Virus record (IMG/VR): IMGVR_UViG_3300049719_000225
Coordinates: 1-64,000 of that record
From: a virus
Length of the DNA: 64,000 nucleotides
Reading direction: 5' to 3' (one strand)
Shown here: positions 1 through 58,045 of the stretch, piece by piece
Layout: every line of letters begins with the position of its first letter
How positions within the stretch are numbered: position 1 is the stretch's first letter
The notes under the pieces: generated by a model
The model's database searches: none
The model's input: the letters and a program-made list of their open reading frames with translations, nothing else
What the model was told of the DNA's origin: nothing
Translations under genes and position numbers: made by a program

Positions 1-885
1 GGCCTCTGTAACGATGCAACAGGTAACAGGGGCATCAACTTAAAGACGGGCCTAACCAACTGTTGGAGGTGCGGAAACCCGGGTTCGCTCAAGAGCTACG
101 CCCAGAGGCTGGGCATAGAACTTGACCTCGGAGAGGAGGAGTCTGGGGCCACGTTGGATGACTTGGAAACGGCCCTGAATGAGTTCGAGAGCCCACAGAA
201 GGCAGGCACTGACATAGTCACGGAAGTGCACCTGCCGAGAGGGTTTACGCCCTTGACACTGGACGGACAGGACAGTTACCACCGACTGGCTGCGGCCATG
301 GCGAGACGGAAGAAACTCACACTGGACGACCTTGTGGACGCTGGAGCTGGCGTGGCTCCAGAGAACAGGAAGTGGGAGCCCTATGTTATATTTCCTGTAT
401 GGGAGTGGGGACGGGTGGTGTATTGGCAGGGCCGTACCATGATTGATCCCTTTGAGGGCGTGACCAAGGAGTTCCCAAGCAGGGCTGAGCTACCCCGAGG
501 CAGCCGCTACTGGGTCTACGGGATAGATGAACTGAGGGTTCGAGGAGGCATCGTCGTGCTGGTGGAGAGCATCCTGAACGTCCTCAGTCTGAGACGGGAA
601 TTGGCCCACAGGGGACTGAAAGAGTTCGTGCCCGTGTGCATCTTCAAGCACCACATCAGCCAGGAACAGCTGGCCAAGATTGGACGCTGTCGCAACATCC
701 AGGAACTCTCGTTCCTCTACGACTCGGACGCCACGGCAAATGCAGACGCCGAAGCCTCGAAATTGGTCAACCGCTTTCCGCGGGTGTCGGTGGTGGTGAT
801 GCCAGATGGTGACGCCAACGATGACGCCGCACTGGCCGTGGACCAGCTTCTCGTGCGTAGGCCGCCCGAGGTGGTGATGCTTTAG
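1..885 (+). CDS. DNA primase (zinc finger + TOPRIM), 5'-truncated by window edge
   Basis: Frame is open from base 1 (GLCNDATG...TNCWRCG zinc knuckle); YVIFPV...VVYWQGR, VLVESILN and LYDSDATA TOPRIM-like motifs. Confidence 0.85.
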   Translation, partial: GLCNDATGNRGINLKTGLTNCWRCGNPGSLKSYAQRLGIELDLGEEESGATLDDLETALNEFESPQKAGTDIVTEVHLPRGFTPLTLDGQDSYHRLAAAMARRKKLTLDDLVDAGAGVAPENRKWEPYVIFPVWEWGRVVYWQGRTMIDPFEGVTKEFPSRAELPRGSRYWVYGIDELRVRGGIVVLVESILNVLSLRRELAHRGLKEFVPVCIFKHHISQEQLAKIGRCRNIQELSFLYDSDATANADAEASKLVNRFPRVSVVVMPDGDANDDAALAVDQLLVRRPPEVVML

Positions 886-34755: not shown

Positions 34756-35487
34756 GTGACACTCGAAGAAGTTCAAGCCAAACGCAAACTTAGACACCTA
34801 GAGAATAGGGAACACAACCTTGCAGTGATGCGAGCCTATGGGAAAAGAAACAGGTCGGCTCTAACCAAAAAATCACGCGAAAGGTATAAAACTGATCCAT
34901 TGTTTAGGGCAGATATAAGGCGACGTTCCAAGAAATGGCTAGCTAAACCTGAGAGCAGAGAAAAACGTTTGGCATCTAGCAGACGGCAAACTGCCAAGAT
35001 AAAGAGCGATCCTATTAAATACCGTGAGGCTCTTGATAGGCATCTGGTTTACATGAAAGAACATGTAAGGACGCCTGAGTACAAAGAGAAGAGGAGAGCC
35101 TGGTACCAGAGGTACCATAAAAATCCCAAAAATGCGATGGTACGCAGACTAAGGTCCAGAGTAAGATTCGCTCTAAAAGCGCGTGGATTCAGTTATTCAG
35201 CGGTGACACTTCTCGGGTGTACAAAAGATGAATTTTTACGCTACATTGAATCCTTATTTGTATCTGGCATGACTTGGGAAAATAGGTGGGCTTGGCATCT
35301 CGATCATAGGAAGCCCATCGCCTCATTTGATTTCAACGATCCTGAGCAGGTGCGGGCCTGTTTTCACTGGTCAAATTATCAGCCCCTCTGGGCTCACGAT
35401 AACATCGTCAAGGGGTGTTCGGTGGTCCCAGATACTTCTTCACCGAGTCTGGCAGAGACACCCACTCCTCCATTGTCCAGTTTCTAA
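34756..35487 (+). CDS. HNH homing endonuclease
   Basis: LLGCT...GMTWEN...WHLDHRKP.ASFD...CFHWSNYQPLWAHDN; own late motif 3 nt upstream. Confidence 0.85.
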   Translation: MTLEEVQAKRKLRHLENREHNLAVMRAYGKRNRSALTKKSRERYKTDPLFRADIRRRSKKWLAKPESREKRLASSRRQTAKIKSDPIKYREALDRHLVYMKEHVRTPEYKEKRRAWYQRYHKNPKNAMVRRLRSRVRFALKARGFSYSAVTLLGCTKDEFLRYIESLFVSGMTWENRWAWHLDHRKPIASFDFNDPEQVRACFHWSNYQPLWAHDNIVKGCSVVPDTSSPSLAETPTPPLSSF

Positions 35488-37882
35488 TCAATGGCCATAC
35501 GTTAGGCCCTTGAACGTACATGTGTGCGTTACGGTAACCCGGAACCAATTTTCCTTTCATAAGAACCCCGTCCACCCACTCCTGCATCCTGTAATTTTTA
35601 TCATCGGCGTGGCCACTGCCGAGATGCTTGCCTGCAATCTCGTCCAGCGTCTTTCTAGTGGCGCTAAAGTGGTAGATGTCATACCCGAATAGCTCGTGGC
35701 GATAACCGTAGGTTCCTCGGCAGTGCTCGAAGGTGGCATCCGTGCGGGCATAGATGGTGGCCTTGTCGAGAGCGCCCTCTATCGGATAGCCAGGCAAGCC
35801 CGCCACGGGCACCATGCCTGTGAAGACGCTCATGGGCCAGCGCTCCCGCACCATCTCGTTCATTCGGGCCAGCATCCCAGGACGCCATAGTTCATCGCCG
35901 TCCATGATGATGGTGTGTTGGAACCCCCGTGCTCCGCAGAAGCGTTGGTACCAGTTGCGGCAGTCGGTCTCTACCTTGATGCGCTCCTGTCTCACGTTCG
36001 CCACCTTCGCCACCTCGAAAGGAATGAACTCGACACCGTATGGGTGGGGGTAGTCCGGGTGGTTCTCCCTCAGCCACTTATTCAACCAGATGTTCAACCG
36101 ATCTGCAATCTTGGAAACCTCTTGGCGTTCATCCTCGTTAGCAGGAGCACCATCCCATCGCATGCTCGGGGCGAACAGGAACACGTTTTCGATTCGGTCC
36201 TGAAGCTCAGTGGTTTTGGAGAGCTTGATGCCCTCTTCAAGGATCCGCTGGCACACCTCGAACAAACACAGGTCGTCTCGGATGGCTTGCACGACTACCG
36301 CATATCGCACGGGCACCGCAGCGTACTCGGCAGACCTAGGTCCGTCATCCAGCGGAAAGCCCAGGTTCTTGCGGAAATTGAACAGTGTCTCGCCGAAGTT
36401 CCAGCGCTCCATGCTGGCGTGTTTCAAGTCCACCTCATCGCGAGGCCTCTTGCCACAGTCTGGGTGCATGTGCTCGAAGAGGAGGTGGCGGGCATCCACA
36501 ATGACGCGATCCTGCGAGGCCACGTAAGTGAACTCGGTGTCACTGTTGTGACTCAAGTAACCGTCTGCCACGTAATTCTTGGTTTCTGTAGAGAGGCAAT
36601 AAACGTCGGTTGTATTGTCGTCGTCGTTGAGCCCCCAGTAAGTGGGCTCGATAGAAACAATCTCATCAGGCGAACCGTAGCGTGAGGTGAACATCCTCTT
36701 GGACACCTGTTTTTTGAAAGTACGTACAGGTCGAGTCCACGCTAAAAACTTTAGGTATTCTTCACGGCCACCCGTGAGCGTGAAAACCTGTTGAGTGACG
36801 GGGGCACCCCGGTATTTTCCGTATGAACGGTCTGTAGAGAATTGGAAACCCAGACGACGAAGAACGCGACCAATCTCGGCGCACACTTCTGGGTTCTTAT
36901 CCAGCGACTGGGAGATGCACGGGAAGCTGCCCTCGCCATCATACATTCCAGCTAACCAACCCAAATCTCGTACGGACTCTGGATCGGTAGGGGCAGGCGG
37001 GGGAGTTTCCAGCACCCTAAGAAGTTTGCGCCCTATTTTAGGCTCTCCCCACCTAATCTGTCCAAACCCCCTTTGCCTAGCGTACCCAGCCGTTGTACGC
37101 AGAATTTTTCCCTTCTCATTTCTCAGATATTGACGGGTATCGCCGTAGTAGGCCCACACATGGTCGGGGGTGCATAGGAGAGTTTTTCCCGATTTCAGAG
37201 TGAGTTTTACAACTCGATCTCGTTTCTTGTGCACCTCAAGAACCTTTGATGGCTGCAAGAAATCACGAGGCTGCACCCCTCGACCAGGCCGTCTTGATGA
37301 TCCGACAACCATATCACCTGGTACGATGTCCCTAATGGCTTTGAACGTCTGGTTCGCCATGTAAATGGGAGTATCAGGCGGAAGGCAGAAGAGACTCTGG
37401 TATCCTGGGTAGAAGACGTAGCCGAACCGCTCGTAGCGTCTGCGGGTAAGGATGGCCAAGGTCAGCAGGTCGGGGTTGTAGCCATCCTTCACCCACATCA
37501 CGATCTCGTTCTTCCACCAACCCCAGGGGATGGTTTCGATGATGCCCTTATCCCAATGGACGGGTACGTCAAAGTCATCGGCCACGCAGATGATGATGTC
37601 ACCCGCGGCGCGACTGGCAGCCGTGTTCCAGCCTGAGACGCAATTCTTGGGGCCGGTGTTGGGAACGCCGCGGATACTGCGGTGCTTCAGGGAGGCATCG
37701 GCCACTAGCTGGATGATGTTGTTGCACACCGCTGTGTCACCTTCATCGTAGCAGATGATGAACTCGACGTTCGACGGATCGTTGGCTCGTTCAAGCCAAC
37801 GTCGCACTGTCAATTCCACCGCTCCTGGTCGTACTGTTGTATAACAGAGGGAGAATATGGGAGCGGGTGCGGGTGTACTCAC
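35408..37882 (-). CDS. Two-domain GT-A (GT2-like) glycosyltransferase, intein-containing
   Basis: GWNTAASRAAGDIIICVADDF; second domain IIMDGDELW. Confidence 0.8.
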   Translation of the reverse strand: MSTPAPAPIFSLCYTTVRPGAVELTVRRWLERANDPSNVEFIICYDEGDTAVCNNIIQLVADASLKHRSIRGVPNTGPKNCVSGWNTAASRAAGDIIICVADDFDVPVHWDKGIIETIPWGWWKNEIVMWVKDGYNPDLLTLAILTRRRYERFGYVFYPGYQSLFCLPPDTPIYMANQTFKAIRDIVPGDMVVGSSRRPGRGVQPRDFLQPSKVLEVHKKRDRVVKLTLKSGKTLLCTPDHVWAYYGDTRQYLRNEKGKILRTTAGYARQRGFGQIRWGEPKIGRKLLRVLETPPPAPTDPESVRDLGWLAGMYDGEGSFPCISQSLDKNPEVCAEIGRVLRRLGFQFSTDRSYGKYRGAPVTQQVFTLTGGREEYLKFLAWTRPVRTFKKQVSKRMFTSRYGSPDEIVSIEPTYWGLNDDDNTTDVYCLSTETKNYVADGYLSHNSDTEFTYVASQDRVIVDARHLLFEHMHPDCGKRPRDEVDLKHASMERWNFGETLFNFRKNLGFPLDDGPRSAEYAAVPVRYAVVVQAIRDDLCLFEVCQRILEEGIKLSKTTELQDRIENVFLFAPSMRWDGAPANEDERQEVSKIADRLNIWLNKWLRENHPDYPHPYGVEFIPFEVAKVANVRQERIKVETDCRNWYQRFCGARGFQHTIIMDGDELWRPGMLARMNEMVRERWPMSVFTGMVPVAGLPGYPIEGALDKATIYARTDATFEHCRGTYGYRHELFGYDIYHFSATRKTLDEIAGKHLGSGHADDKNYRMQEWVDGVLMKGKLVPGYRNAHMYVQGPNVWPLIRNWTMEEWVSLPDSVKKYLGPPNTP
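36545..37387 (-). mobile_element. LAGLIDADG intein in glycosyltransferase (281 aa)
   Basis: SLF|CLPPDTPI...CTPDHVW...WLAGMYDGEG...YVADGYLSHN|SDTEF. Confidence 0.92.
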
Positions 37883-44057: not shown

Positions 44058-46668
44058 ACTGGATCGACACTGAGAGCACGTTCACCATCGTGCCTGCAGC
44101 GGCAGTGACGACTGGCAGTATCTGGCTCATCGTGCTGGACGTGGCAAACACCTGAGTCTGCGTCAACGTGTAGGTGACGACGCCTCCCGGCACTGTGGTG
44201 GTCATCAGGTTCACAGTCACCGTGTAGGTGTTGTTCGCGAGCAGGTTGTTCATCCACACCGTGAGCGTGATGAACTGAATGTTGTAGCCGCCTCCAGGCC
44301 CCGTGTTCAGGAGGTTGTACGACGTGAAGGCCCCTGCCTGTTGAGGCAGGTTCACTATCGATCCAGTGCCCACTGAGGATCCAGTGCTGGTAAGATTCGT
44401 GATGCTGACGCCGCCTGTCGCAGGGTTCGTGACCGTGAACGTGAAGTTCGGCGAGATGAGCGCTGCCCCTGTCTGTTGCGCAGCCGCACGGGTGACTGTT
44501 GGCCAGAAATCTGGACCAGCTACGAGACAGCCGAAGTCAATCATCCATGGCTGACACACCCGCAACGCCGGTGTCAGGAGCGGCGTGGCATAGGTGGCAA
44601 GGATCGTGCCCGTGCCATCCGAGGTAGGTACGAGACCCGCAGGCACGAGTGCAGGACGACCGAGGTCTCCCGGTCCTGCGGCTTGGAAGGCTTGGAACAG
44701 GCGCACCTCGGCCAACGAAATGGCGTTTAGCCAGCGTTGATTGGCGTTGCTGTCCCACACATAGCCGTAGGTTGGGTCTGGGGTGCGAATCTCTGAAACG
44801 GCATTGTTCACCTGCGACCAGGAGTTTTTAACCGAGTCGAGTGCCAGTGAGAGAAGGGACCGCTTGTGCCGCTCGTAAAGGTAGGCGTTTTGGATCGGCG
44901 TGGTGCCCTGGTAGGCGCGGATGTCGAAGCCATAGATGTAAAGGCAGATCCCCTGGGAGCCGAACCAGTTCAGCGTGAGGGCGGGCACGATCTGTTGCGC
45001 TGTGTTGTAGACATCGAGCCAGACGCAATCCATCCGCTCAGGAATGCCTGCAAACTGCGAGGTGAAACTGTTCACGGGTCCGAGGGCTGCCCCGATGCTG
45101 TAGTTCACCGGCGTGTTGACCGGCAACACCGTCGTCACTTGCAGCTCCTCAATGGTAAGTTGAGCCCCAGCGTTGCCGTACCACGTCACCGTCACCGTGC
45201 CCGGCTGGCCTGAGGTGGACAGCTGAACAGGGGGCGTCATCACCGCCGTTCCCGGCACCTGTCCGAACGACCATGCACCGGAGTACACCACGTTGGCGTT
45301 GTAGCTCACCTGAACCTGAAACGACGTGGTCGGGTTCACGAGGTCCGTGATGCTGAAGGATAGGAGAATGCCTCCAGAAGGGGCGGCGAATGACCAGCTG
45401 ATGCTGCCTGCGGCGGTGAGGGTGGCCGACGTGGGGAAGAGCACCGAGGGACAGGTGATGCCTGCTGTATTCTGATAGCCGAAGATGTTCAGAATGCGGC
45501 TCGGCTTGACGAGGAAGCCTATCCGTATCGGGCCGGGTGGGATCACACAGGGCACGGAAAACTGGAGCGTTCCGGGCGTGGTGATGAGCGCTGAATTGGG
45601 CTGCCACAGGCCACCAGCCGTGATGTTGTTTTCAGGGGCGATGGTGTTGTAGATGAGGTTGTCCCTCCAGTTGCGCACGACAAGACGCGCGCTTTTCTGG
45701 CGGTAAAACGCAGAGTCCGACGCACTCGGCACCTGATACTGGAGCTGCACGATTCCCCCATCCGGCGTCACGAATGTGGGCGTAACAGGCACACCTGTCG
45801 TTGACGGCCCCACCATCTCATCCTGCCAAGTGATGCTGCCCTGAGGCGGGTTGTAAATGATCTGTCCTGCAGTGCCCTGAAGCAGGGGCCACGACGCCCA
45901 AACCCGTTGCGACGGCGTGGAACTTACGAGTTGGTACACCTCAGGTTCCGATACGTTTGTATCCGGGCTCACAGTGAGCACAAGCAGACGACTGGCGAAA
46001 CTCCAGACTCGGTCGATGTTGTAGCGGATGTTTGCCACGTATGCCGCGAGCGTGTTATCCCTATCCGCTAGCGCCTGGTCCGGCGTCTTGAAGAGCGCCA
46101 CGTTCAGGGGATAGCCCTGACTCACGGTCTGAGTGGAGAAGTTACCCGCGGCGAGAGACCACGCCTCATTTATCGAGGTGGGAAGAAGGGGAGGAGGGGA
46201 AAGGATGCCTGTGGCAAACTGTTTCGTGGCCAGATAGAGCCAAGTGTAGATCAGGAGATCCCGAGCGTAGAGCATCTCATCTGCCGTGACGGCATCCGAT
46301 CCAGGGGAGCCCGCGGGAACGCTCTGGTTGTCCACATGCGTGACGTTTCCAGGGCTTGAGTAGGCTGCCCCAAGTAGGTCAACGGAGAGGTCCTGCAACG
46401 TTCCCACAGGATCACCTGCAACACGCGGATAGGGCACGGAGATGCCCCAGATGTCGCCGCAGGCACTGGCCACCTCTGCAATGGTCACTGCGAGGATCAG
46501 GTCTCGATAGGATAGGTTTCCATCTCTCTGAGCAAAGGGTAGAGTTGAGAAATCGGCAGCCGGATTGACGTACGGCAGCGTCGAGCCTGGTTGCTGCGCA
46601 TTGAACCACCAGAGGTAGTTGTACTTCGGCAATGGGAACGCGGAATACATCAGAGATGGATGAGCCAC
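44056..46668 (-). CDS. Large virion structural protein (baseplate-associated)
   Basis: 870 aa, T/S/G/V-rich beta domains, downstream of gp53-like gene. Confidence 0.65.
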   Translation of the reverse strand: MAHPSLMYSAFPLPKYNYLWWFNAQQPGSTLPYVNPAADFSTLPFAQRDGNLSYRDLILAVTIAEVASACGDIWGISVPYPRVAGDPVGTLQDLSVDLLGAAYSSPGNVTHVDNQSVPAGSPGSDAVTADEMLYARDLLIYTWLYLATKQFATGILSPPPLLPTSINEAWSLAAGNFSTQTVSQGYPLNVALFKTPDQALADRDNTLAAYVANIRYNIDRVWSFASRLLVLTVSPDTNVSEPEVYQLVSSTPSQRVWASWPLLQGTAGQIIYNPPQGSITWQDEMVGPSTTGVPVTPTFVTPDGGIVQLQYQVPSASDSAFYRQKSARLVVRNWRDNLIYNTIAPENNITAGGLWQPNSALITTPGTLQFSVPCVIPPGPIRIGFLVKPSRILNIFGYQNTAGITCPSVLFPTSATLTAAGSISWSFAAPSGGILLSFSITDLVNPTTSFQVQVSYNANVVYSGAWSFGQVPGTAVMTPPVQLSTSGQPGTVTVTWYGNAGAQLTIEELQVTTVLPVNTPVNYSIGAALGPVNSFTSQFAGIPERMDCVWLDVYNTAQQIVPALTLNWFGSQGICLYIYGFDIRAYQGTTPIQNAYLYERHKRSLLSLALDSVKNSWSQVNNAVSEIRTPDPTYGYVWDSNANQRWLNAISLAEVRLFQAFQAAGPGDLGRPALVPAGLVPTSDGTGTILATYATPLLTPALRVCQPWMIDFGCLVAGPDFWPTVTRAAAQQTGAALISPNFTFTVTNPATGGVSITNLTSTGSSVGTGSIVNLPQQAGAFTSYNLLNTGPGGGYNIQFITLTVWMNNLLANNTYTVTVNLMTTTVPGGVVTYTLTQTQVFATSSTMSQILPVVTAAAGTMVNVLSVSIQ

Positions 46669-47093
46669 GCTCCTGATACGCTCACGTAAACAGGAGGATT
46701 GTTCAGGTTGTTGACCACGAATACGCCGTAGGTGTCGGGCTGATCAAGGGGCCACACCTGGGCTGGAGGGAACACGCCCACCGTACCTGGGATGTCCACG
46801 CCCACGTACGCCAGTGGCTCTCCCGGAGGTCCAGCTAGGAGATCAGCTCTGCTTCCGTACAAGCCCGCATACACCGAGTTGTAGGTCGGGTTGTTTTTCA
46901 TGGGTGGGGCCGATAGCACCAACATGCGGATGAGGTGCACACTGAGCCAGGAGAGCGTGGCCCTCTGACCCTGTGCCAGCTGAAGCATGGTCACAGTCTG
47001 CTCAACACCTGGTTCGAGCATTGTCTCTGGCAGATTGAAGGGCACCCACAGGTATCGCCCGAGATCGTCCTCGGTTATGAATTGGGAAGACAT
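46650..47093 (-). CDS. Virion protein, paralogue of 47596..48114
   Basis: VPFNLPETMLEP...TLSWLSVHL...VYAGLY...VVNN. Confidence 0.6.
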   Translation of the reverse strand: MSSQFITEDDLGRYLWVPFNLPETMLEPGVEQTVTMLQLAQGQRATLSWLSVHLIRMLVLSAPPMKNNPTYNSVYAGLYGSRADLLAGPPGEPLAYVGVDIPGTVGVFPPAQVWPLDQPDTYGVFVVNNLNNPPVYVSVSGAWLIHL

Positions 47094-47599
47094 GGTTGTT
47101 TCTGTTGCAACATGCGCCGATACGTCCTGATGCTGTGACAGTTTGCACATACTAAGTCACATTTCGCTATCTCCTCTTCTATCCTTTTGATACTATGGCT
47201 TTTTGCACGACTTTCTGATAGCTCAAAACTCTTGTCCCTCTTATGGTCAAAGTGCATCACGTAAAACGGATAGCGGGTGTTACAGTCTGTACAGGGTTTG
47301 TCTTTCTGAGATCGTATGAAATCTCGCTTCTTTTCCTGACATCGTTTGACGGCTAGTCGTTTTACCTGCGGGTTTCTGGCAGTGCTAAGTCTTCCACGAA
47401 CCCGACCAAATTCCTTGCAGGCTTCACAGCGACACCGATGTCTAAGATATTCATTTTCAGTCCCATGCTTTGGAGGAGAACGCCTGACGCCTTTCTCAGG
47501 GCCACTCTTCAAAAAAGGCACGGATTCTCCAGCGATACGACGCCTGTAACGCTTCATCGTCTCTCTCTGTGCTACGTGCAGGGAATCAGAAAAGATCAT
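47075..47599 (-). CDS. HNH homing endonuclease
   Basis: HGTENEY..HRCRCEAC, PCTDC...MHFDH, KCDLVCANCHSIRT. Confidence 0.85.
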   Translation of the reverse strand: MIFSDSLHVAQRETMKRYRRRIAGESVPFLKSGPEKGVRRSPPKHGTENEYLRHRCRCEACKEFGRVRGRLSTARNPQVKRLAVKRCQEKKRDFIRSQKDKPCTDCNTRYPFYVMHFDHKRDKSFELSESRAKSHSIKRIEEEIAKCDLVCANCHSIRTYRRMLQQKQPCLPNS

Positions 47600-48114
47600 G
47601 CGGGACCCAGGCTCATCACGATCTGTCCAGTCACCGTAAGGCGCAGCGACCAGGTGGTGGTGTTGTTGCAGATCACGAAGCTGTACGGGCCAGCAGCCGA
47701 GTAGGTGGCTGGTGTCGTAGACCTGGCGGCGTAGAGTGGCGGCGTATTGGTCGTGGCTGAGCCGATGATGAGCGGATTTTCCTGAGCCGCCTGGGTATTT
47801 GGGGACACCAGTGCGTTGAAATTGTAGTAGAGACCCACGTAGGCCAGCCCATAACCTGGAGTGACGAGTGTGGCATCGCTTGTAGGGAATACGCACACGC
47901 CGTCCACAGGAGAAATGCTGGCTGTATCAGCTGTGGTAGAGTTGTCGAGAAAGCTCAGCAGGTTCATTTGGAGCCACGTAAGTGTGAACGACTGGGCTGA
48001 CGAAAGGACGGTGGAACTTACCACAAGCCACTGTTCTGGCTCTATTTCCGTGAGAGGCAGGCTTACGGGAAGTGGGATCAGGCTCTCGTATTGAGTGCTG
48101 GTGACGTAGCTCAT
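47596..48114 (-). CDS. Virion protein, paralogue of 46650..47093
   Basis: LPVSLPLTEIEP...TLTWLQMNL...AYVGLY...ICNN. Confidence 0.6.
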   Translation of the reverse strand: MSYVTSTQYESLIPLPVSLPLTEIEPEQWLVVSSTVLSSAQSFTLTWLQMNLLSFLDNSTTADTASISPVDGVCVFPTSDATLVTPGYGLAYVGLYYNFNALVSPNTQAAQENPLIIGSATTNTPPLYAARSTTPATYSAAGPYSFVICNNTTTWSLRLTVTGQIVMSLGPA

Positions 48115-48118
48115 GAAA

Positions 48119-48481
48119 TTATCGGTTTAGGCCTGTGGGTGAGAAACGGACCTGTACGCCCGTCTGGAAATCCAACAGGGGATCCAGGAATTGGGAAAGG
48201 TCAGCGAGCAGCCACCAAAGAGCGGGATCACCCTGGTAGAAATTGCTGATCGTGTCGGGACGATTGGACGTGGCCATCGTGACATTGACCAGGCGGTCGC
48301 TGTTTTGGGCCACGGCCTGAATCCTGAGCCCGAAGACCAGGTTTCCGTCCGATGGGTTGGTGTAGATGGGCGTGAGCTGATAGGCCGAGTCGTTGGCCAG
48401 CGTCACCGTGCTCGTGGATGGCGTTGCTACGGCCTGCAGGGTGGTGCTGCTGTTGACGGTTGAACTGCTGCTAGTGGCCAT
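48119..48481 (-). CDS. Baseplate wedge LysM-like protein (gp53-like)
   Basis: NRPDTISNFYQGDPALWWLLAD...DPLLD. Confidence 0.75.
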   Translation of the reverse strand: MATSSSSTVNSSTTLQAVATPSTSTVTLANDSAYQLTPIYTNPSDGNLVFGLRIQAVAQNSDRLVNVTMATSNRPDTISNFYQGDPALWWLLADLSQFLDPLLDFQTGVQVRFSPTGLNR

Positions 48482-48620: not shown

Positions 48621-49727
48621 ATGTCCATCTTCATTCCGCCTGCTCGTATTCGTCACGAAGACGAACTCTTCATCAACTCGCTCGCGCTCCAGTATCGCGA
48701 CTCCTTCTGGGATCACGAGACGCTTCGCAGCATCTCCGCCGACGCCCTCCGCATGATTCGGCACCTCGCTTCGAGGTACTCCGACCCTACCTGCATGGAG
48801 CTGAACGCCGAGGAGCTGGAGGCCGAGGGCAGGCGGAAATTCATCGAGCAGGTCACCGTCGTAAAAGTATTGACGGGTCTGCCCCAACGGTTACACATTG
48901 GTGATCTCGTGGTCTCCTTCAACGGTGCTCCCGTGTCGGATACGTCACAGTTGGCTAGAGAGATAGGCAGGTGCGCACCGAGGTCCGAGGCCGTAATCGA
49001 GTATTTGCGTTGGCCCAAAACCAGAAAAAACGAGGAAGAGGACAAGGAAGACAACAAGCCGAAAATGATGAAGGCTGGGGCCATAAAGTTCACGCTGGGC
49101 GACGAGGATGGGAAAGCTACCGTCTCCGGTGTCACGTTCAAGGAGATGGATGATGACACACGCTGGACAGGCCTGTCCGTCGAGAATTTCAACCCCTATG
49201 CCGCCGTTGTGGACGATGTGGATTCAGACGATTCACTGGTTTGTGGACGTGCTCCGAGGCCGCCCACGAGGGTCGAACTCTTCAGCTGGTTGAAGTGTTG
49301 CGCCAACAACCACATTCGGGGCATCGTCCATCGTTGTCGGTTCACTGTGAGGCGCACGGGACGCCGGGTGCCGTCCAAGGACAGCAATGTGGACTGGAAC
49401 AGATCGTTCAAGCCTGAGGTGAGTCTGGAGGCGGCCTCGGAGGACGAGTTCATGAACAGGGCCGTGGAACGGGCGGCCAGCGTGTGGGACTCCCATGCGG
49501 TGCAGGAGTTCGATGAGGATATGGGGGCGTCGAGGTACGCCTACCGCAGTTTCTCCCATCCTTCCAATTCCAATCTTACTATCAAACTCATCAGTTTACA
49601 TCTGCGTCTTCTACCAAATGATCTCGTCTCTATCGACAACTGCGCCTACCTCAACCTCCTCGCCGACCATTACCGTGAAAACGGATGCTCGGTCAGGTAC
49701 ACTTACACGCCACAGGCATCCGCATAG
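48621..49727 (+). CDS. Sigma-factor-like protein, N-terminal part (region 2 with inserted PDZ domain)
   Basis: RMIRHLASRY...AEELEAEGRRKFIE, [GDLVVSFNGAPVSDTSQL], LFSWLKCCANNHIRG, EVSLE. Confidence 0.6.
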   Translation: MSIFIPPARIRHEDELFINSLALQYRDSFWDHETLRSISADALRMIRHLASRYSDPTCMELNAEELEAEGRRKFIEQVTVVKVLTGLPQRLHIGDLVVSFNGAPVSDTSQLAREIGRCAPRSEAVIEYLRWPKTRKNEEEDKEDNKPKMMKAGAIKFTLGDEDGKATVSGVTFKEMDDDTRWTGLSVENFNPYAAVVDDVDSDDSLVCGRAPRPPTRVELFSWLKCCANNHIRGIVHRCRFTVRRTGRRVPSKDSNVDWNRSFKPEVSLEAASEDEFMNRAVERAASVWDSHAVQEFDEDMGASRYAYRSFSHPSNSNLTIKLISLHLRLLPNDLVSIDNCAYLNLLADHYRENGCSVRYTYTPQASA

Positions 49728-50958
49728 CGAGTCTCCGGAAGCAGTCCTGGCGGATTTGGAGTTCTTGGTCTACCATCAACTCACGAACCCAAACCCGCAG
49801 GCATGCACGCTTGCGGAGATCGACAGTTTTCGCGGGAGAAAATCCAAGGGTCCCATCAAGGTGGACATCACTGAGGACAATCTCGCGGATGGCCTGGGGA
49901 TGCCCCGTGAACTTTTTCACCAGGTGCGCTCAGGCATAAAGGAGAAAATCGCCCACCACATGACACTCCAACCACACGAACAGGCCCACCACACAGCAGT
50001 AATGGCCCTTGAAAGGCTCTTCGAGGTGCACGTACCCAGGCTCATCGAGCCCATTGTCGTCCGTCGCATCTTCACGATGAAGGCCCGTGCCGACTACAAG
50101 AAGATCATCAACGGATGGACGGACCCAGGTACTGGCGTTCATTTGTCGTTCGAGCAGATCTCGGACCTGTTGCGGACGGTGGGGGCCAAGCCCCCGGTCA
50201 TGGACGCCAATCAGACCACGCTCGCTTGTTTCGGTATTCTTTGGGAGGCGAACAACAATGCCTGCCGCAACTGTGACCTCTTTGCATCCTGCAACGCCGA
50301 GGCAGCCACACTCGGGCTGGCCATCCCCATGACATCGACCACTGCTAGCGTACTAGACAAGGGCGGATTCAACCTGTCACCGAAGCTGTTGCCCGCCGTA
50401 GCCAAGGTGCGCACCGCCCACAAGACAGACGAGAGCGCCCGGCCCCAGCTCTCAACCAAGACCGACAAGCCCGTAACCTCTTCCCTCGCCGAGGAGGAGA
50501 TGGTGAACTACCTGGAGAAGAATTTCTGGGGGTTCAACTGCTTCATCTACAAGTACTACACGCACAGAGGCGACACGAGCATGAACAAGGGTACCAGCTA
50601 CCTGTTCTGGCTTGGCCGCCTTCTGGACGGAAAACGCACGAAGCGCACCGAGGACGGTGGTCAGCTCAGGCTCGCATTCATTCCGCCCAACAAACCGGAG
50701 GTGAAGGAGCCGCAGGAGGGCGAGTCGCTGCCCCCACCCCCACCCTATCCGCCCGCCTGGTGGCTGGAAATGCGTTCCAAACTGGAGAAAATAGGCGGCA
50801 GCTACTATCTTCCCTTGAACTGCGAGTACAGCACACTGGTGGAGCTGTGCGAGAAACAGGCTCAATGCAGGCCTTCCCACGTTGAGTCCAGGCCTCCCCG
50901 GCCCAAGAAACCGAAGAAGGCCAAGTCCCTATGCCCGAAACCTCCGTCCTCGACCTGA
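49726..50958 (+). CDS. Sigma region-4-like HTH plus Cys4 domain; probable +1-frame continuation of 48621
   Basis: LADLEFLVY...TEDNLADGLGMPRELFHQVRSGIKEKI; CFG...CRNCDLFASC; no convincing independent start. Confidence 0.5.
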   Translation, partial: SESPEAVLADLEFLVYHQLTNPNPQACTLAEIDSFRGRKSKGPIKVDITEDNLADGLGMPRELFHQVRSGIKEKIAHHMTLQPHEQAHHTAVMALERLFEVHVPRLIEPIVVRRIFTMKARADYKKIINGWTDPGTGVHLSFEQISDLLRTVGAKPPVMDANQTTLACFGILWEANNNACRNCDLFASCNAEAATLGLAIPMTSTTASVLDKGGFNLSPKLLPAVAKVRTAHKTDESARPQLSTKTDKPVTSSLAEEEMVNYLEKNFWGFNCFIYKYYTHRGDTSMNKGTSYLFWLGRLLDGKRTKRTEDGGQLRLAFIPPNKPEVKEPQEGESLPPPPPYPPAWWLEMRSKLEKIGGSYYLPLNCEYSTLVELCEKQAQCRPSHVESRPPRPKKPKKAKSLCPKPPSST

Positions 50959-51882: not shown

Positions 51883-53787
51883 ATGATAAGTTCTATTGCC
51901 GTGATCACTTACCGCCGTTTGGGTCCTCTGCGGGCTTTCCTGCAGTCCATTGAGTCGGTCTGTCCACAATATCCGCTAGCGGTGTTTGAGGACTGTGCCA
52001 CCTATGACGGCACGGCGGCCTTCCTGATGAAGGACGCCACCCCTCTGGGCTACGATAGTGAGTTTGACTCTGACGGCTACGAACACACCAGCCCTTCGGG
52101 AAGAAAATGGACGGCTTGGCTGTCCAAGAGGAACGAGGGTGTGGTCGGTGGTTCCAACAAGGCGTTGAGATGGATGGAACGCAACAAGTTTGACCACCTG
52201 TGCCTCTGCAATGATGACCTGTTGGCCAAGGGAGACTTCCCCAGCGTCTATCTGGCAGCACATCAGAAGCTAAGCGTGGGGCTGTTCACATTCTGTGACC
52301 TGAAAAACACGGCTCGGGCCACGTACGAAGGCCCCACTGTTCCTGTGAAAGGGCTCCGGGTGAAGATACTGCCCCGCATGGTTGGGATGATGATGAGCGT
52401 CACCTCCAAGCTTGTCTACGACTCTCCAGAAGCCATCGGTTATTTTGACGCCACCTTCGGACGGTTTGGAAACGAGCATTGCCTGTCATTTGATACTCCC
52501 TTAATAACTAGAAATGAGGGACTTATTAAATTAGGGGATGCGGATGGTAAGTGGGTTGAAGTGTGGAATGGTGATTCATGGACAGCTCTGAAACCCCGCA
52601 AAACGGGTTCGGGAAGAAAACTCTATCGCGTGACACTGAGTGACGGCTCCTATCTTGATTGCACGAGTGAACATCGCTGGTCGGTAACCCGCAGAAACAA
52701 GCCTAATCGATGGGCTCCGAGCCGCACTGATGAACTTACTAACGCATATCGTTGTGAACCCACGCAGCTCGATGGAAATTTTGGAAAGAAGAGGTACCCG
52801 CACGCTTACACACTCGGGTTTGCTGTTGGAGACGGATTTGTCGATAATACCACTGGAAAAGTGATCGTGCCGTTGAATGGAAACAAGGACATCCAATGCC
52901 CTGTGGCAGGAACCAGGTTCAAATACACCAGGAAGGGGATATGTAAGGGGGCTATGGTTGATAGTTCCAGATTTGTGAAAGCGAGGTTGGTGCAAACTTT
53001 GAAGTTGGATGCCGATGCGTTGCTGCCCCTGTTTTTTTGGAATCGTCATAGCATTTTGAGTTTCATCGCCGGTCTTGCAGACGCAGACGGCACACACGGA
53101 GGCTCGAAATACGGCATCCGGATTTCCATCAGTCGGGAGGACAGGGTGAGGCGACTGCAGCTCTTGCTCACTCGTGTTGGTATAAAATCGTCCATATTTT
53201 TATGCGGTAAAAAAGGTTCTTTGACCAATTTTGGACCTAGGGGAGAAGATCTCTGGGGGTTACAAATCACTGATTGTAGGAACATACCCTGTCATAGATT
53301 GGATACGACCAGGGGACGGCAGCCCATAAAAAAGGGCAAATACCAGGTAGTTAGATCAGTGACAGAACTCCCAGGTCTCCACGATACTTACTGTTTGACT
53401 GAGCCCAAAAATCACAAGGCTCTGTTTGGAAATGTGCTCACGCATCAATGCGACTACAACAACAGAGCCCGTCTCATGGGATTCATCAACCTGAGCAACC
53501 AGGCCCAGCTTGCCCTGGACGTGGAGACAGTCACACTTTCCAGCCAAATGAGTGAGTCAGGGCCTATTCCAAGTGCTATCTTGGCCTTTGAGCGGGGGCC
53601 TTTGGATGCGCGGGCTAATGCGGATGCTGCACGGGCCTCTCGCCTTTACACGTACGAGCACCTCTATCGACCCTATCGACTACCCTACCCCGTCTATGCC
53701 GATGCCTTTGGAATGCCCAACCAAGGCATACCCACCCATGAACTGGAACGACTGGGGTACGAGATGGTGATGGATCGCGTAACGTAG
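51883..53787 (+). CDS. GT2-like glycosyltransferase, intein-containing
   Basis: IAVITYRR, VFED, NEGV...NKAL, LCNDD, IGYFDATFGRFGNEH|CDYNNR. Confidence 0.82.
   Translation: MISSIAVITYRRLGPLRAFLQSIESVCPQYPLAVFEDCATYDGTAAFLMKDATPLGYDSEFDSDGYEHTSPSGRKWTAWLSKRNEGVVGGSNKALRWMERNKFDHLCLCNDDLLAKGDFPSVYLAAHQKLSVGLFTFCDLKNTARATYEGPTVPVKGLRVKILPRMVGMMMSVTSKLVYDSPEAIGYFDATFGRFGNEHCLSFDTPLITRNEGLIKLGDADGKWVEVWNGDSWTALKPRKTGSGRKLYRVTLSDGSYLDCTSEHRWSVTRRNKPNRWAPSRTDELTNAYRCEPTQLDGNFGKKRYPHAYTLGFAVGDGFVDNTTGKVIVPLNGNKDIQCPVAGTRFKYTRKGICKGAMVDSSRFVKARLVQTLKLDADALLPLFFWNRHSILSFIAGLADADGTHGGSKYGIRISISREDRVRRLQLLLTRVGIKSSIFLCGKKGSLTNFGPRGEDLWGLQITDCRNIPCHRLDTTRGRQPIKKGKYQVVRSVTELPGLHDTYCLTEPKNHKALFGNVLTHQCDYNNRARLMGFINLSNQAQLALDVETVTLSSQMSESGPIPSAILAFERGPLDARANADAARASRLYTYEHLYRPYRLPYPVYADAFGMPNQGIPTHELERLGYEMVMDRVT
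52480..53448 (+). mobile_element. LAGLIDADG intein in glycosyltransferase, C-terminal Gln (323 aa)
   Basis: CLSFDTPL...CTSEHRW...LGFAVGDG...FIAGLADADG...GNVLTHQ|C. Confidence 0.93.
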
Positions 53788-54718: not shown

Positions 54719-56512
54719 ATGTCCAAGATACTCCTCCTGGAGGACGTACATCAGTTTATCCCCAAGCCTGCTGCGGTCCAAGAGATCAAGGAAAGCATGG
54801 CTCGCGGTCAGCTGAAGTTCCCAGTGGAGATAACGGGACGCCTCTCCGTCATCGGTATCAGGAACGAGAACAACAGGCGCTACAAGAAATCGGTGTGGGA
54901 GAAGCAGCTGCAGGAAAACTCGCAGCTTCGCTCTTTGATCAAGGCCCGCAGGTCTGTGGGCCTTCTCGAACATCCCGAGGATGGTCAGGTTTCCCTGAGG
55001 TCTCCGATCACCCACATCCTAATGGATGTCTGGATGGAGGGCGACGAAGTTTTCGGGAAGCTTGGATTCATCAACACTCCCGAGGGCCACAAGATGCTGG
55101 CCCTGATCGAGGCGGGCTACAACCCCCTCGTTTCCAGTCGAGGCTATGGAAGCGTCGTACGGGGATCCGATGGCGTGGACGACGTTCAGGAAGACTACGT
55201 CTGCGAAGGCTGGGACTCCGTGTGGAATCCCTCCTTCAAGACCGCTGAACTCGACGGTTCCCAGCTTCGTACCAGGTCCGAAGCCAAGACCGAGTCCACC
55301 GAACCCGCCAAGCCTGCCCTCACGTCCGAAAGCCCCGAAGTCAACCTCTACGAGTCAAAAACAGAACAGAGCACCAACAACATGAACGACCAGCTAAAGT
55401 CCATCAGGGAGTCAATTGCTCCCCTTGCGACGGCTGATGTGGCCAGCATGCCGCCTCAGCAAGTCGCATCCACGCTCGCCCGCTGTGGCGAGTTGCACCG
55501 CCGGGCCGCTCAAGTGGCAGATCCCGCCTCTTCCTGGGACGTTCATGAGATTCACCAGGAAATCACCGCAGTGGAAAACCGCCTCACCGAGGCGATGTCC
55601 GCACCGGCGAAGAAGGTGGCTGCCCTGAACGAGCAGAGCACGAAGACGCTGAAGACCCTGAAGATCGTCGCCGAGACGGCGCTGAAGTTCAAGGGTGCAG
55701 CGACCAAGTACCTCAAGGAGGCGCAGTCCAAGTCGGCCAAGCTCAAGGAGACCATCGAGCGCGGACAGGGCTGGGTCAAGCGTGCCCGCATTGCCGAGGC
55801 CCGCCTCAAGAAGGTGGAGGCCAAGTACCAGTTCGCCTGCGAGTCGGTCGATGAGATCAAGGCTCGCTACGAGGCCGACACGACCGAGCTGGGACGCCGG
55901 ATGCTCCAGCTGGAGTTCAAGGAGAAGTTCACGGACGCCGATCTGCTGAAGCAGCTCAACGAAGCGTCTTCGCTCAAGGACCTCATCGCCATTCGCGAGA
56001 AGTTCAAGGAGCCGGATGGCGGCGTCGTCAAGGTATCGGGCGGCAAGGCCGGTCCCGGTGAGGTCGTGGGCAAGGAGGGTGCCACCAAGGATGCCGCGAA
56101 GGCCCCGGGTGTCAGCCAGACCCTGAAGACCACGCCCGTCAAGGACGAGGAACAGGTGGGCGTCGATAGCGAAGGCAAGAAGCTCGGCGGCTCCCTGAAG
56201 GGCAACGCTGGATCCAGGGGCGTTGCTGAGGATGTCTCATCCGAGGCCGGTCCCGGGGAAGTCGAAGGCAAGGAGAAGCCCACCAAGGACGCCGCCAAGG
56301 ATCCCGGCAAGTCCGAAACACTCGCCGACAAGAAGGACGACAAGGACGAAGAGGGCAAGAAGGGCGCAGACGACACTGGCAAGAAGGAGTCTGTCAGCCC
56401 CGGTGCTCGCACGACGACGCTCGTTGAGGCTGTCCTCATGAGCCCCGACCGTGAGTTCAACGTCTCGGAACTCTCAGGCAGCATTCGCCGCCTTTCGGAA
56501 TCTCGCAAGTAA
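54719..56512 (+). CDS. Prohead protease (gp21-like) fused to scaffold/core coiled coil
   Basis: NENNRRY, GLLEHP, INTPEG, VSSRGYGS, WDSVWNPS; then E/K-rich coiled coil and AGPGEV.GKE repeats. Confidence 0.9.
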   Translation: MSKILLLEDVHQFIPKPAAVQEIKESMARGQLKFPVEITGRLSVIGIRNENNRRYKKSVWEKQLQENSQLRSLIKARRSVGLLEHPEDGQVSLRSPITHILMDVWMEGDEVFGKLGFINTPEGHKMLALIEAGYNPLVSSRGYGSVVRGSDGVDDVQEDYVCEGWDSVWNPSFKTAELDGSQLRTRSEAKTESTEPAKPALTSESPEVNLYESKTEQSTNNMNDQLKSIRESIAPLATADVASMPPQQVASTLARCGELHRRAAQVADPASSWDVHEIHQEITAVENRLTEAMSAPAKKVAALNEQSTKTLKTLKIVAETALKFKGAATKYLKEAQSKSAKLKETIERGQGWVKRARIAEARLKKVEAKYQFACESVDEIKARYEADTTELGRRMLQLEFKEKFTDADLLKQLNEASSLKDLIAIREKFKEPDGGVVKVSGGKAGPGEVVGKEGATKDAAKAPGVSQTLKTTPVKDEEQVGVDSEGKKLGGSLKGNAGSRGVAEDVSSEAGPGEVEGKEKPTKDAAKDPGKSETLADKKDDKDEEGKKGADDTGKKESVSPGARTTTLVEAVLMSPDREFNVSELSGSIRRLSESRK

Positions 56513-56557: not shown

Positions 56558-58045
56558 ATGTCAGTCGTAGCACAAAATGGTAGGCCGATGCTCGTCACAG
56601 ACGGCGGCCAGCCCGCAAAGTTCGCGGAAATTTTGGAGTGGGGTTACCACCTCGCCAAGACGCCGCTCGGAATCCCCTCTGGGGGCAATCACAAGGCCAT
56701 CTGGGAGGCCAAGGGATGGAAGGAGTTTGTAGAGGGCATGCCCGAATACAAGCAGGCCACCACCGCCATCATGTTGGAGAACTGCCGCAAGACCTTCGGT
56801 CGCCTCGATGAGGTGACGCGCACACAGGCCCTCGGCTCCTTCGACAAGTGGATCTTCCCGGTCATCGCCAACATGGCGGAGAATGACGTGATCGACCAGA
56901 TCGTGGCGCTCCAGCCCATGTCCGGGCCGACCTCACAGGTCGTCTACATGGACATCGTGACGGAGACCTCGAAGGGCCAGATCCCGGGTGGCACGCCGTT
57001 CTGGCGCGCAATCCAGGGAGCGGCTGACCGCTTCGGTGACTCCGACGAGCTGGTCCAGAACGAGACGTACACGACGGACGGTTCGGGCAACCTGGGCAAC
57101 TCGCCCACGGTCAACCTCGCGTGGCTGCCCGTAAGGGCTGGCACCGTGCAGGTCACCCTCAACGGTGTGACGACCATGGACGACGGCAACGGCGTCATCT
57201 TGGCGCTTGGCGGCACGTTCCAGACAGCGGGTACGATCAACTACCTGACGGGTGCCATCGTGGTCAACGGCAGCGCTGGTGGAGCTAACAGCACCATCAC
57301 GATCACGTATGCGTTCAACTCGGAAGCCAACCAGACCATTCAGGGTTACGAAATGAGGCTCAGCGCCGTGCCTGTGACGGCGAAGGTCCTCAAGCTCCGC
57401 ACCCTGTGGTCAGAGGAAGCCGACCAGAACCTCCAGGCGATGTTCAACATCAAGATGGAGAGCACGATGATCAACGCTCTCACGGCGGGTCTGCAGTACC
57501 AGAAGCACCGCTCCGTGATCGCCGACATCCGCGCCAGGGCTCAGGCAGGCACAGTGTCATGGGATGCTACGCCCCCGACCTCGGTGAACTACCAGACGCA
57601 CAAGTTCAGCTTCATCGACGCCATCGTCACGGGGTCCAACCTGATCCTCGGAGCGACGAACATGGTGTCTGGCAACTGGATCATCCTCGGCCTTCAGGCG
57701 GCTACCGTCGTACAGACGCTGCCCCAGTTCCAGGCCAAGGGCAACCTCCAGGAGACGCAGGGCATCTCCTACATCGGCGATATGGCCGGGTTCAAGTGTT
57801 TCCGCGACCCGCACTACCCGCAGTCCGAGTTCCTGATTGGTTACAAGGGTGACCAGTTCGTGCGCACGGGCTACGTGTTGGCCGAGTGGCAGAAGCTCTA
57901 CACCACCCCGGACGTGGTGCTGACGGACTTCGTCCATCGTCGTGGCTTTGCGACCTCGTTCGCCAAGCACTGCATCAACGCCGGAATGTATTGCCGTGGT
58001 TCTGTGCTTAATGCCCCGGTAGCATTTGGTCAGGTGTTTGGTTAA
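56558..58045 (+). CDS. Major capsid protein (gp23-like) with beta-rich insertion domain
   Basis: TAIMLEN, LQPMSGPTSQV, VTAKVLKLRTLWSEEADQNLQA, FRDPHY, LIGYKG. Confidence 0.92.
   Translation: MSVVAQNGRPMLVTDGGQPAKFAEILEWGYHLAKTPLGIPSGGNHKAIWEAKGWKEFVEGMPEYKQATTAIMLENCRKTFGRLDEVTRTQALGSFDKWIFPVIANMAENDVIDQIVALQPMSGPTSQVVYMDIVTETSKGQIPGGTPFWRAIQGAADRFGDSDELVQNETYTTDGSGNLGNSPTVNLAWLPVRAGTVQVTLNGVTTMDDGNGVILALGGTFQTAGTINYLTGAIVVNGSAGGANSTITITYAFNSEANQTIQGYEMRLSAVPVTAKVLKLRTLWSEEADQNLQAMFNIKMESTMINALTAGLQYQKHRSVIADIRARAQAGTVSWDATPPTSVNYQTHKFSFIDAIVTGSNLILGATNMVSGNWIILGLQAATVVQTLPQFQAKGNLQETQGISYIGDMAGFKCFRDPHYPQSEFLIGYKGDQFVRTGYVLAEWQKLYTTPDVVLTDFVHRRGFATSFAKHCINAGMYCRGSVLNAPVAFGQVFG

Follow-up and report, generated by a model that had tools for sequence, protein, structure and literature searches.

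Introduction

ECF (group 4) sigma factors, including those that are extended at the C-terminus, such as SigH of M. tuberculosis, RpoE of E. coli and the cysteine-rich CorE-type groups, combine sigma-2 with sigma-4 and have no sigma-3 domain (PMC6411747, PMC7826278). ECF and primary sigma factors have a specificity loop between regions 2.2 and 2.3 that makes up the pocket receiving the flipped "master" base of the -10 element; region 1.2 orders this loop in the primary sigma, and in the free SigH holoenzyme it is disordered (PMC6411747). A survey of ECF sigma factors, which did not capture those of phages, records extensions at either terminus and no domain insertions, and the words "PDZ" and "insertion" are absent from it (PMC7826278).

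Sigma function can also be shared by two polypeptides. In T4, gp55 comprises sigma-2 only and is partnered by gp33, which is not known to have a true sigma-4 helix-turn-helix fold. The non-phage SigO-RsoA pair is another natural sigma with functions shared between two proteins. According to a reference title in the ECF survey, RsoA carries a region 2.3-like segment (PMC7826278), which would place the SigO-RsoA division inside sigma-2. Outside the sigma factors proper, the double-wing fold of YjbR has been likened to the C-terminal domain of T4 MotA (PMC7641849).

Here, we describe a phage locus in which elements of these systems appear together. We consider it reasonably probable that a T4-like phage encodes, in two overlapping reading frames (ORF1 and ORF2), a very divergent sigma factor of ECF-like type with a PDZ domain in its specificity loop and a two-piece mechanism. 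We could not find a description of a sigma-2 domain with a PDZ in the specificity loop and a split gene; a full-text literature search for a sigma carrying a PDZ returned nothing relevant, in agreement with the initial annotation of this DNA, which knew of no described sigma of this architecture.

The phage locus

The window, as we call the whole stretch of DNA analysed, is 64,000 nucleotides long and represents positions 1-64,000 of the linear 98-kb virus record IMGVR_UViG_3300049719_000225. The source virus is a T4-like myovirus, and the window encodes a gp23-type major capsid protein (56558-58045), an S77 prohead protease (54719-56512), a tail sheath protein (7551-9710) and a gp53-like baseplate wedge protein (48119-48481). 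A spacer of 139 nt separates the wedge gene from the divergently placed ORF1 (48621-49727). Canonical gp55 is absent from the 98-kb record, in which the profiles phrog_234 and phrog_12791 found no match at E-values up to 1. Since the record is estimated to be 43% complete and thus covers only about that share of the genome, a conventional late sigma may be encoded elsewhere.

Mobile elements are visible at several places in the window. Intein or homing-endonuclease domains lie within a DnaB-like helicase, a family A DNA polymerase and two glycosyltransferase-like genes (genes at 26705-29182, 30009-34238, 35408-37882 and 51883-53787). Two small structural genes (46650-47150 and 47596-48114), which overlap in the related loci L003 and L005, are 445 nt apart in the window (47151-47595). 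An ORF on the minus strand in that gap, 47075-47896, contains an HNH-like histidine/cysteine motif and is probably a free-standing homing endonuclease insertion.

The 7-mer YAGTTAR, mostly in the form TAGTTAG, is enriched upstream of genes across the 98-kb record. It occurs 31 times, and 16 of these copies stand 2-4 nt ahead of an ATG or GTG with which an ORF of at least 60 aa begins; examples in the window begin at 2413(-), 3108(-), 5992(+), 12919(-), 14241(-), 34746(+) and 60342(+). Equal spacing between the element and the start codon is seen in the related loci L003, L004 and L005. With a spacing of 2-4 nt to the start codon, YAGTTAR occupies the Shine-Dalgarno position, and it may serve as a non-Shine-Dalgarno signal for translation or, in the case of leaderless mRNAs, as a -10-like element. 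YAGTTAR was not found ahead of ORF1 or ORF2, and a scan for sigma-70-type promoters around the gene gave a number of sites not above chance expectation.

ORF1 and its protein family

ORF1 (48621..49727, plus strand) runs from an ATG at 48621 to a TAG at 49725-49727 and encodes 368 aa; its product is identical to the public database protein P0001. Its structure was predicted by AlphaFold with a 110-sequence family alignment. The mean pLDDT is 80, and residues 11-250 are mostly above 90, with dips at about 131-150 and 201-210.

Four parts can be distinguished ahead of the C-terminal tail. The first (48648..48863, plus strand, residues 10-81) corresponds to sigma-2 N-terminal helices resembling regions 1.2, 2.1 and 2.2; the predicted helices span residues 12-24, 32-52 and 63-81 with pLDDT above 93, and this segment is 79-81% identical in amino acids among relatives. 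The second (48864..49256, plus strand, residues 82-212) is an insert of about 130 aa that holds a bacterial-type PDZ domain with a lysine/glutamate-rich loop at about 131-150. The third (49257..49343, plus strand, residues 213-241) comprises the C-terminal part of the specificity loop and a long helix resembling regions 2.3 and 2.4, placed at residues 217-240 in the AlphaFold model. The fourth (49344..49529, plus strand, residues 242-303) is a conserved linker with invariant family columns; taken together, the linker and the 2.3/2.4-like helix reach 88-91% identity among relatives. F221 and R245 are invariant in the family, and R217 and N230 nearly so.

A profile search of 1.84 billion representatives placed ORF1 in a family of 186 clusters at 50% identity. 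The family is without useful annotation, and no sequence profile tool that we used connects it with sigma factors. Typical members are single chains of 470-530 aa. One of these unsplit, PDZ-less relatives, P0010 (486 aa, model pLDDT 89), shows the domain order sigma-2, linker, sigma-4, four invariant cysteines and a YjbR/MotA-like double-wing domain. The PDZ is confined to the clade of the window, which comprises four sequences (P0001-P0004) and also has the gene split. The related loci L003, L004 and L005 came from a metagenome scan, and scans of viral contigs found no related loci.

Individual members depart from these patterns. In L005, the ORF1 homologue at 8800-9100 is frameshifted relative to the otherwise near-identical database protein P0002, probably because of an assembly error. 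P0007 (644 aa) carries its double-wing C-terminal domain in two tandem copies. P0016 (899 aa) has a LAGLIDADG intein at residues 113-508, inside sigma-2 and just ahead of the region 2.3/2.4 helix, near the PDZ site of the window's clade.

Structural evidence for sigma domains 2 and 4

The models were compared with 48,161 chains by an all-against-all structure aligner. The best match of the ORF1 model was the N-terminal domain of SigE (Z 7.4, rmsd 3.1, 80/80 residues), and the superposition covers model range 20..242, hence both sides of the insert. About 25 of the best 50 matches among the 48,161 chains are sigma-2 domains, including those of sigma70, sigma28, SigB, SigW, RpoS, SigH, BldN, pro-sigmaK and 7d7d_F, a chain of the T4 gp45-dependent transcription activation complex (Z 6.2-6.5 over the ORF1 and P0010 comparisons).

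P0010 gave a similar picture and extended it to the second domain. Its residues 11-117 match sigma-2 (Z 7.6), and its residues 163-249 match sigma-4, with SigR region 4 (Z 7.6, 63/65 residues) and CnrH (Z 7.5) among the targets. Over the two models, the superposition on the SigE N-terminal domain has Z 7.4-7.6, 78-80 of 80 residues and rmsd 3.1-3.2, and about half of the best 50 matches are sigma-2 chains. The Z-scores of the second domain are 7.2-7.6 at an rmsd of about 2, with whole targets covered; for CnrH, SigF and SigE region 4, the rmsd values are 1.9-2.5. In addition, whole ECF and sigma28 chains align over both sigma domains of P0010.

In Foldseek, the PDZ-bearing model returned PDZ proteins only, at weak E-values, and the discontinuous sigma-2 was seen just by the all-against-all aligner. 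In further Foldseek searches for the family, the top matches in the PDB and in the BFVD viral library were mostly sigma factors, again at weak E-values. One neighbour cluster in the Atlas consisted entirely (100%) of Sigma70_r2 proteins.

Sequence methods gave a different result. Pfam searches of ORF1 and ORF2 at E-values up to 1 yielded no sigma match, PHROGs likewise offered no route to sigma, and searches of PDB sequences with the family profiles found no sigma. Sigma70_r4 was matched in one of 17 short family members (E 0.002). Comparison of the family with T4 gp55 by hhalign gave a probability below 1%. Against RpoE, whether as a single sequence, with the 17-sequence alignment or with sub-profiles, the probability was at most 2%; the 17-sequence alignment, with at least 86% identity, is not deep enough for a fair test. 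The one hint from sequence came from the comparison with E. coli RpoE, in which regions 2.1/2.2 and 2.3/2.4 paired collinearly around the insert, at the positions given by the initial annotation, although the match was non-significant. Since no sequence method ties the flanks to sigma, the sigma assignment rests on predicted structure. The initial annotation had read both flanks as sigma region 2, and this reading is borne out by the predicted fold (SigE, Z 7.4) but by none of the sequence comparisons.

These results leave some room for the view that the family consists of helical DNA-binding regulators or scaffolds that merely resemble sigma-2 plus sigma-4, with the PDZ form as a variant. The failure of every sequence-profile test against sigma speaks for this view, as do the middling scores: Z-scores of 6-7.6 lie in the range that the aligner flags as possible for helical bundles, and unrelated helical proteins, such as cytomegalovirus IE1, reach similar values. 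However, two domains match the corresponding sigma domains in the correct order and over whole targets (80/80, 63/65 and 57/57), entire ECF chains align across both, and four independent match lists are dominated by sigma chains. Inteins favour conserved sites of essential proteins, and the intein within sigma-2 of one member also argues against a non-sigma role. We therefore judge a non-sigma family to be distinctly unlikely and hold it very probable, on the basis of the models, that the family is one of sigma factors.

The PDZ domain and its place in the specificity loop

The presence of a PDZ domain in ORF1 is confirmed by profile and by predicted fold. Residues 85-142 match Pfam PDZ_2 (PF13180) with an E-value of 5e-7 and 30.3 bits, above the curated cut-off of 27 bits, and P0001-P0004 all carry the precomputed PF13180 assignment. 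In the structure comparison, model residues 88-178 superpose on the PDZ domains of MucP/RseP with Z 6.5-7.2 and rmsd 2.0-2.8, the best being PDZ2 of MucP (Z 7.2, rmsd 2.0, 68 residues), and the PDZ domains of SpoIVB and of the HtrA family likewise match the model. The best matches in a sequence search of the PDB, both weak, were the PDZ domains of Deg1 (E 0.074) and HhoA, whereas the structure neighbours in the Atlas were 80-100% PDZ_2 and belonged to the Lon, site-2-protease and SpoIVB types. The domain had been labelled HtrA-type; Deg1, as the best PDB sequence match, is in line with that label, but the site-2-protease, Lon and SpoIVB domains appear to be at least as close.

The comparison of relatives shows that the PDZ is an insertion. 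In the 126 family members in which both flank profiles could be placed, the gap from flank to flank is mostly 4-13 residues (mode 6) and in a few cases 17-45, and a gap of 125-161 residues occurs only in P0001-P0004. An HMM of the insert matches only these four proteins. The domain stands in place of the short loop between the region 2.2 helix (63-81) and the 2.3/2.4 helix (217-240), which is the position of the specificity loop. The insertion of a PDZ into region 2, as initially proposed, was thus upheld. The segments on which that proposal drew were located as well: residues 44-76 form the 2.1/2.2-like stretch, residues 78-130 the PDZ stretch at 48852-49010, and residues 220-234 the 2.3/2.4-like stretch. 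The separation of the two flank stretches, put at about 140 aa, was counted as about 143 residues. The pocket-forming side of the 2.3/2.4 helix may be intact, because R217, F221 and N230 are kept on the C-terminal side of the loop.

Among the four lineages, the insert is 47-55% identical in amino acids, compared with 79-91% for the flanks, and its dN is 0.35-0.48, compared with 0.08-0.18. Judged from these alignments, the PDZ is maintained under looser constraint than the flanks, because it has stayed in frame at 47-55% identity despite saturated synonymous sites. The higher dN and the restriction of the PDZ to one small clade would also suit a functionless passenger, that is, a piece of host sequence taken up recently and tolerated by a permissive loop. 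Yet in four lineages whose proteins differ by 35-48% and whose synonymous sites are saturated, the domain has kept its frame and can still fold, and model confidence exceeds 90 throughout the PDZ except in one loop, so that we regard a passenger as very unlikely.

A maintained PDZ could nevertheless serve a structural purpose instead of binding a peptide. It might buttress or pre-organise the specificity loop in the manner of region 1.2, or contact DNA or polymerase, and its presence would then be unrelated to the gene split. The insertion site coincides with the loop that region 1.2 orders in primary sigma and that lacks order in free ECF sigma (PMC6411747), and the loop accepts smaller inserts of 17-45 residues in other members. 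Moreover, the extreme C-termini of ORF1 and ORF2, the candidate partners, are not conserved among relatives; therefore, they present no obvious PDZ ligand motif. Against a purely structural role stand two residues in the second half of the PDZ, L159 and G160, which are invariant in all four proteins. They may correspond to the PDZ carboxylate-binding loop, which would fit a retained groove. The co-occurrence of PDZ and split also counts against this role, though only as a single evolutionary event. All in all, a structural PDZ seems unlikely to us.

The split gene and ORF2

The sequence that follows the linker differs between the window's clade and its relatives. In unsplit relatives, the conserved linker runs straight into sequence homologous to ORF2. 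In ORF1, it is followed by a clade-specific tail of about 65 aa and the stop codon (49530..49727, plus strand), which are missing from unsplit relatives. The tail has 39-46% identity and low pLDDT. The idea, raised by a MAFFT alignment, that it partly duplicates the first double-wing helix was rejected on the basis of hmmsearch E-values of 0.06-0.8 and an hhalign probability of 0.4%.

ORF2 (49618..50958, plus strand) lies in the +1 frame relative to ORF1, overlaps it and encodes 446 aa from a conserved ATG. Unsplit relatives carry its homologue as their C-terminal two thirds. The first of its domains is a predicted sigma domain 4-like helix-turn-helix (49744..49965, plus strand, ORF2 residues ~43-116), aligned with residues 163-249 of P0010. 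The initial annotation had taken the protein of ORF1 for a phage sigma; this holds for the sigma-2 half, which is indeed contained in 48621-49727, but the predicted sigma-4 half lies in this next, overlapping ORF.

After a helical region, four family-invariant cysteines follow in the arrangement C-x11-C-x2-C-x5-C (50227..50292, plus strand; C204, C216, C219 and C225 of ORF2). Judged from the motif, they form a candidate metal or Fe-S site, and their spacing recalls the Fe-S sites of WhiB-like proteins and endonuclease III. At the C-terminus, approximately at 50482..50892 (plus strand), lies a domain resembling the double wing of YjbR and the MotA C-terminal domain. It is homologous to residues 391-486 of P0010, which superpose on YjbR (2fki) with Z 8.7 and rmsd 2.4 over 88 aligned residues; MotA C-terminal domains are present in both Foldseek lists.

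L003, L004 and L005, which are independent contigs, share the two-ORF arrangement and the +1 frame of the window. This arrangement invites the interpretation that ribosomes shift into the +1 frame in a programmed manner, at the ORF1 stop or close to it, and produce one full-length sigma, with the ORF1 product as a shorter by-product. Unsplit relatives are, after all, single chains, ORF2 is in the +1 frame at all four loci, its sigma-4 homology begins directly past the ORF1 stop, and there is no conserved start codon closely downstream of that stop. A C after the stop codon is a weak termination context, and a C follows the stop at each of the four loci. Comparison of the same four loci, however, revealed no slippery site common to them: ORF1 closes with GCA, GTC, TCG or ACC before a TAG or TGA stop. 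All four DNA sequences keep a +1-frame ATG at the equivalent aligned position, 104-110 nt ahead of the ORF1 stop, amid variable ORF1 codons, and of the two frames in the overlap, that of ORF1 is the better conserved. Because this ATG is conserved while the stops and the codons before them vary, we prefer the reading of two distinct genes that overlap and consider a programmed frameshift improbable.

Proposed mechanism and significance

Taken as two separate products, ORF1 would contribute sigma-2 and the inter-domain linker, and ORF2 would contribute sigma-4, the candidate four-cysteine metal site and the double-wing domain of DNA-binding type. We infer that both pieces would assemble on the core of the host RNA polymerase, where sigma-2 would bind the beta-prime clamp helices and sigma-4 the beta flap, and that the assembled factor would direct the host polymerase to phage promoters. 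A phage sigma that retargets the host polymerase is consistent with both the order of the domains and the phage context.

The PDZ, placed beside the -10 pocket, would dock a peptide, most likely a C-terminus contributed by the partner piece or by some other protein of phage or host. Such docking might keep the split factor together or switch promoter opening on and off. The initial annotation had likewise inferred gating by a peptide or tethering to a phage complex. Because PDZ and split occur in one clade, the data suggest that the PDZ helps to tether the pieces or a regulator; their co-occurrence represents a single evolutionary event. A more specific proposal is that a C-terminal peptide, belonging to the sigma-4 piece or to a signal protein of phage or host, is captured by the PDZ and that its capture reconstitutes the two-piece sigma or licenses promoter melting, in a new phage sigma family with a Cys4 motif (perhaps an Fe-S site) and a MotA-like double-wing domain; we offer this version tentatively and regard it as possible rather than probable.

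If true, this would be the first sigma regulated or assembled via a peptide-binding domain built into its -10 recognition loop, and an inserted-PDZ sigma would be a natural template for engineered ligand-gated sigma factors. The conserved split between linker and sigma-4 would add one more natural two-piece sigma to the very few known. More broadly, a family of 186 clusters, unlinked to sigma by profiles, bears on how divergent T4-like phages redirect host transcription.

Comparison with known systems

The predicted domain composition corresponds to that of ECF sigma factors, with sigma-2, sigma-4 and no sigma-3. As in that group, there is a specificity loop between regions 2.2 and 2.3 and a regulatory extension past sigma-4, which is cysteine-rich here. 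The present proteins differ from ECF sigma factors in that neither Pfam nor HMM searches match them to sigma regions 2 or 4, in that they are much longer, with an extension of 250 aa that has a double-wing domain at its end, and in that a PDZ lies inside the specificity loop and the gene is split.

With T4, the locus shares the T4-like context and a sigma function distributed over two polypeptides, one of them a minimal sigma-2. There is, however, no detectable sequence relation to gp55, and the second piece is predicted to have the true sigma-4 helix-turn-helix fold, unlike gp33; T4 also has no PDZ in this system. In the SigO-RsoA pair, which similarly divides the functions of a sigma between two proteins, there is no PDZ, and the division found here lies between linker and sigma-4.

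The PDZ itself belongs to the same PDZ_2 family and fold as those of the regulatory proteases RseP/MucP, HtrA/Deg, Lon-like and SpoIVB, with an rmsd of ~2.0 over 68 residues to PDZ2 of MucP. In contrast to these, it comes without a protease, is inserted into a cytoplasmic transcription factor, and has an extra charged loop and additional strands past residue 175. The C-terminal domain of the ORF2 type resembles the double-wing domains of MmcQ/YjbR (Z 8.7 to YjbR) and of the T4 MotA C-terminus (PMC7641849), but here it is fused behind sigma-4 instead of forming a separate activator as in MotA, and its DNA binding is putative.

Known sigma factors are controlled from outside, by anti-sigma factors, proteolysis or terminal extensions. 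With a folded interaction domain in the loop that receives the "master" base of the -10 element, the opening of promoters would be tied to a protein signal, which would be a new way of controlling a sigma factor.
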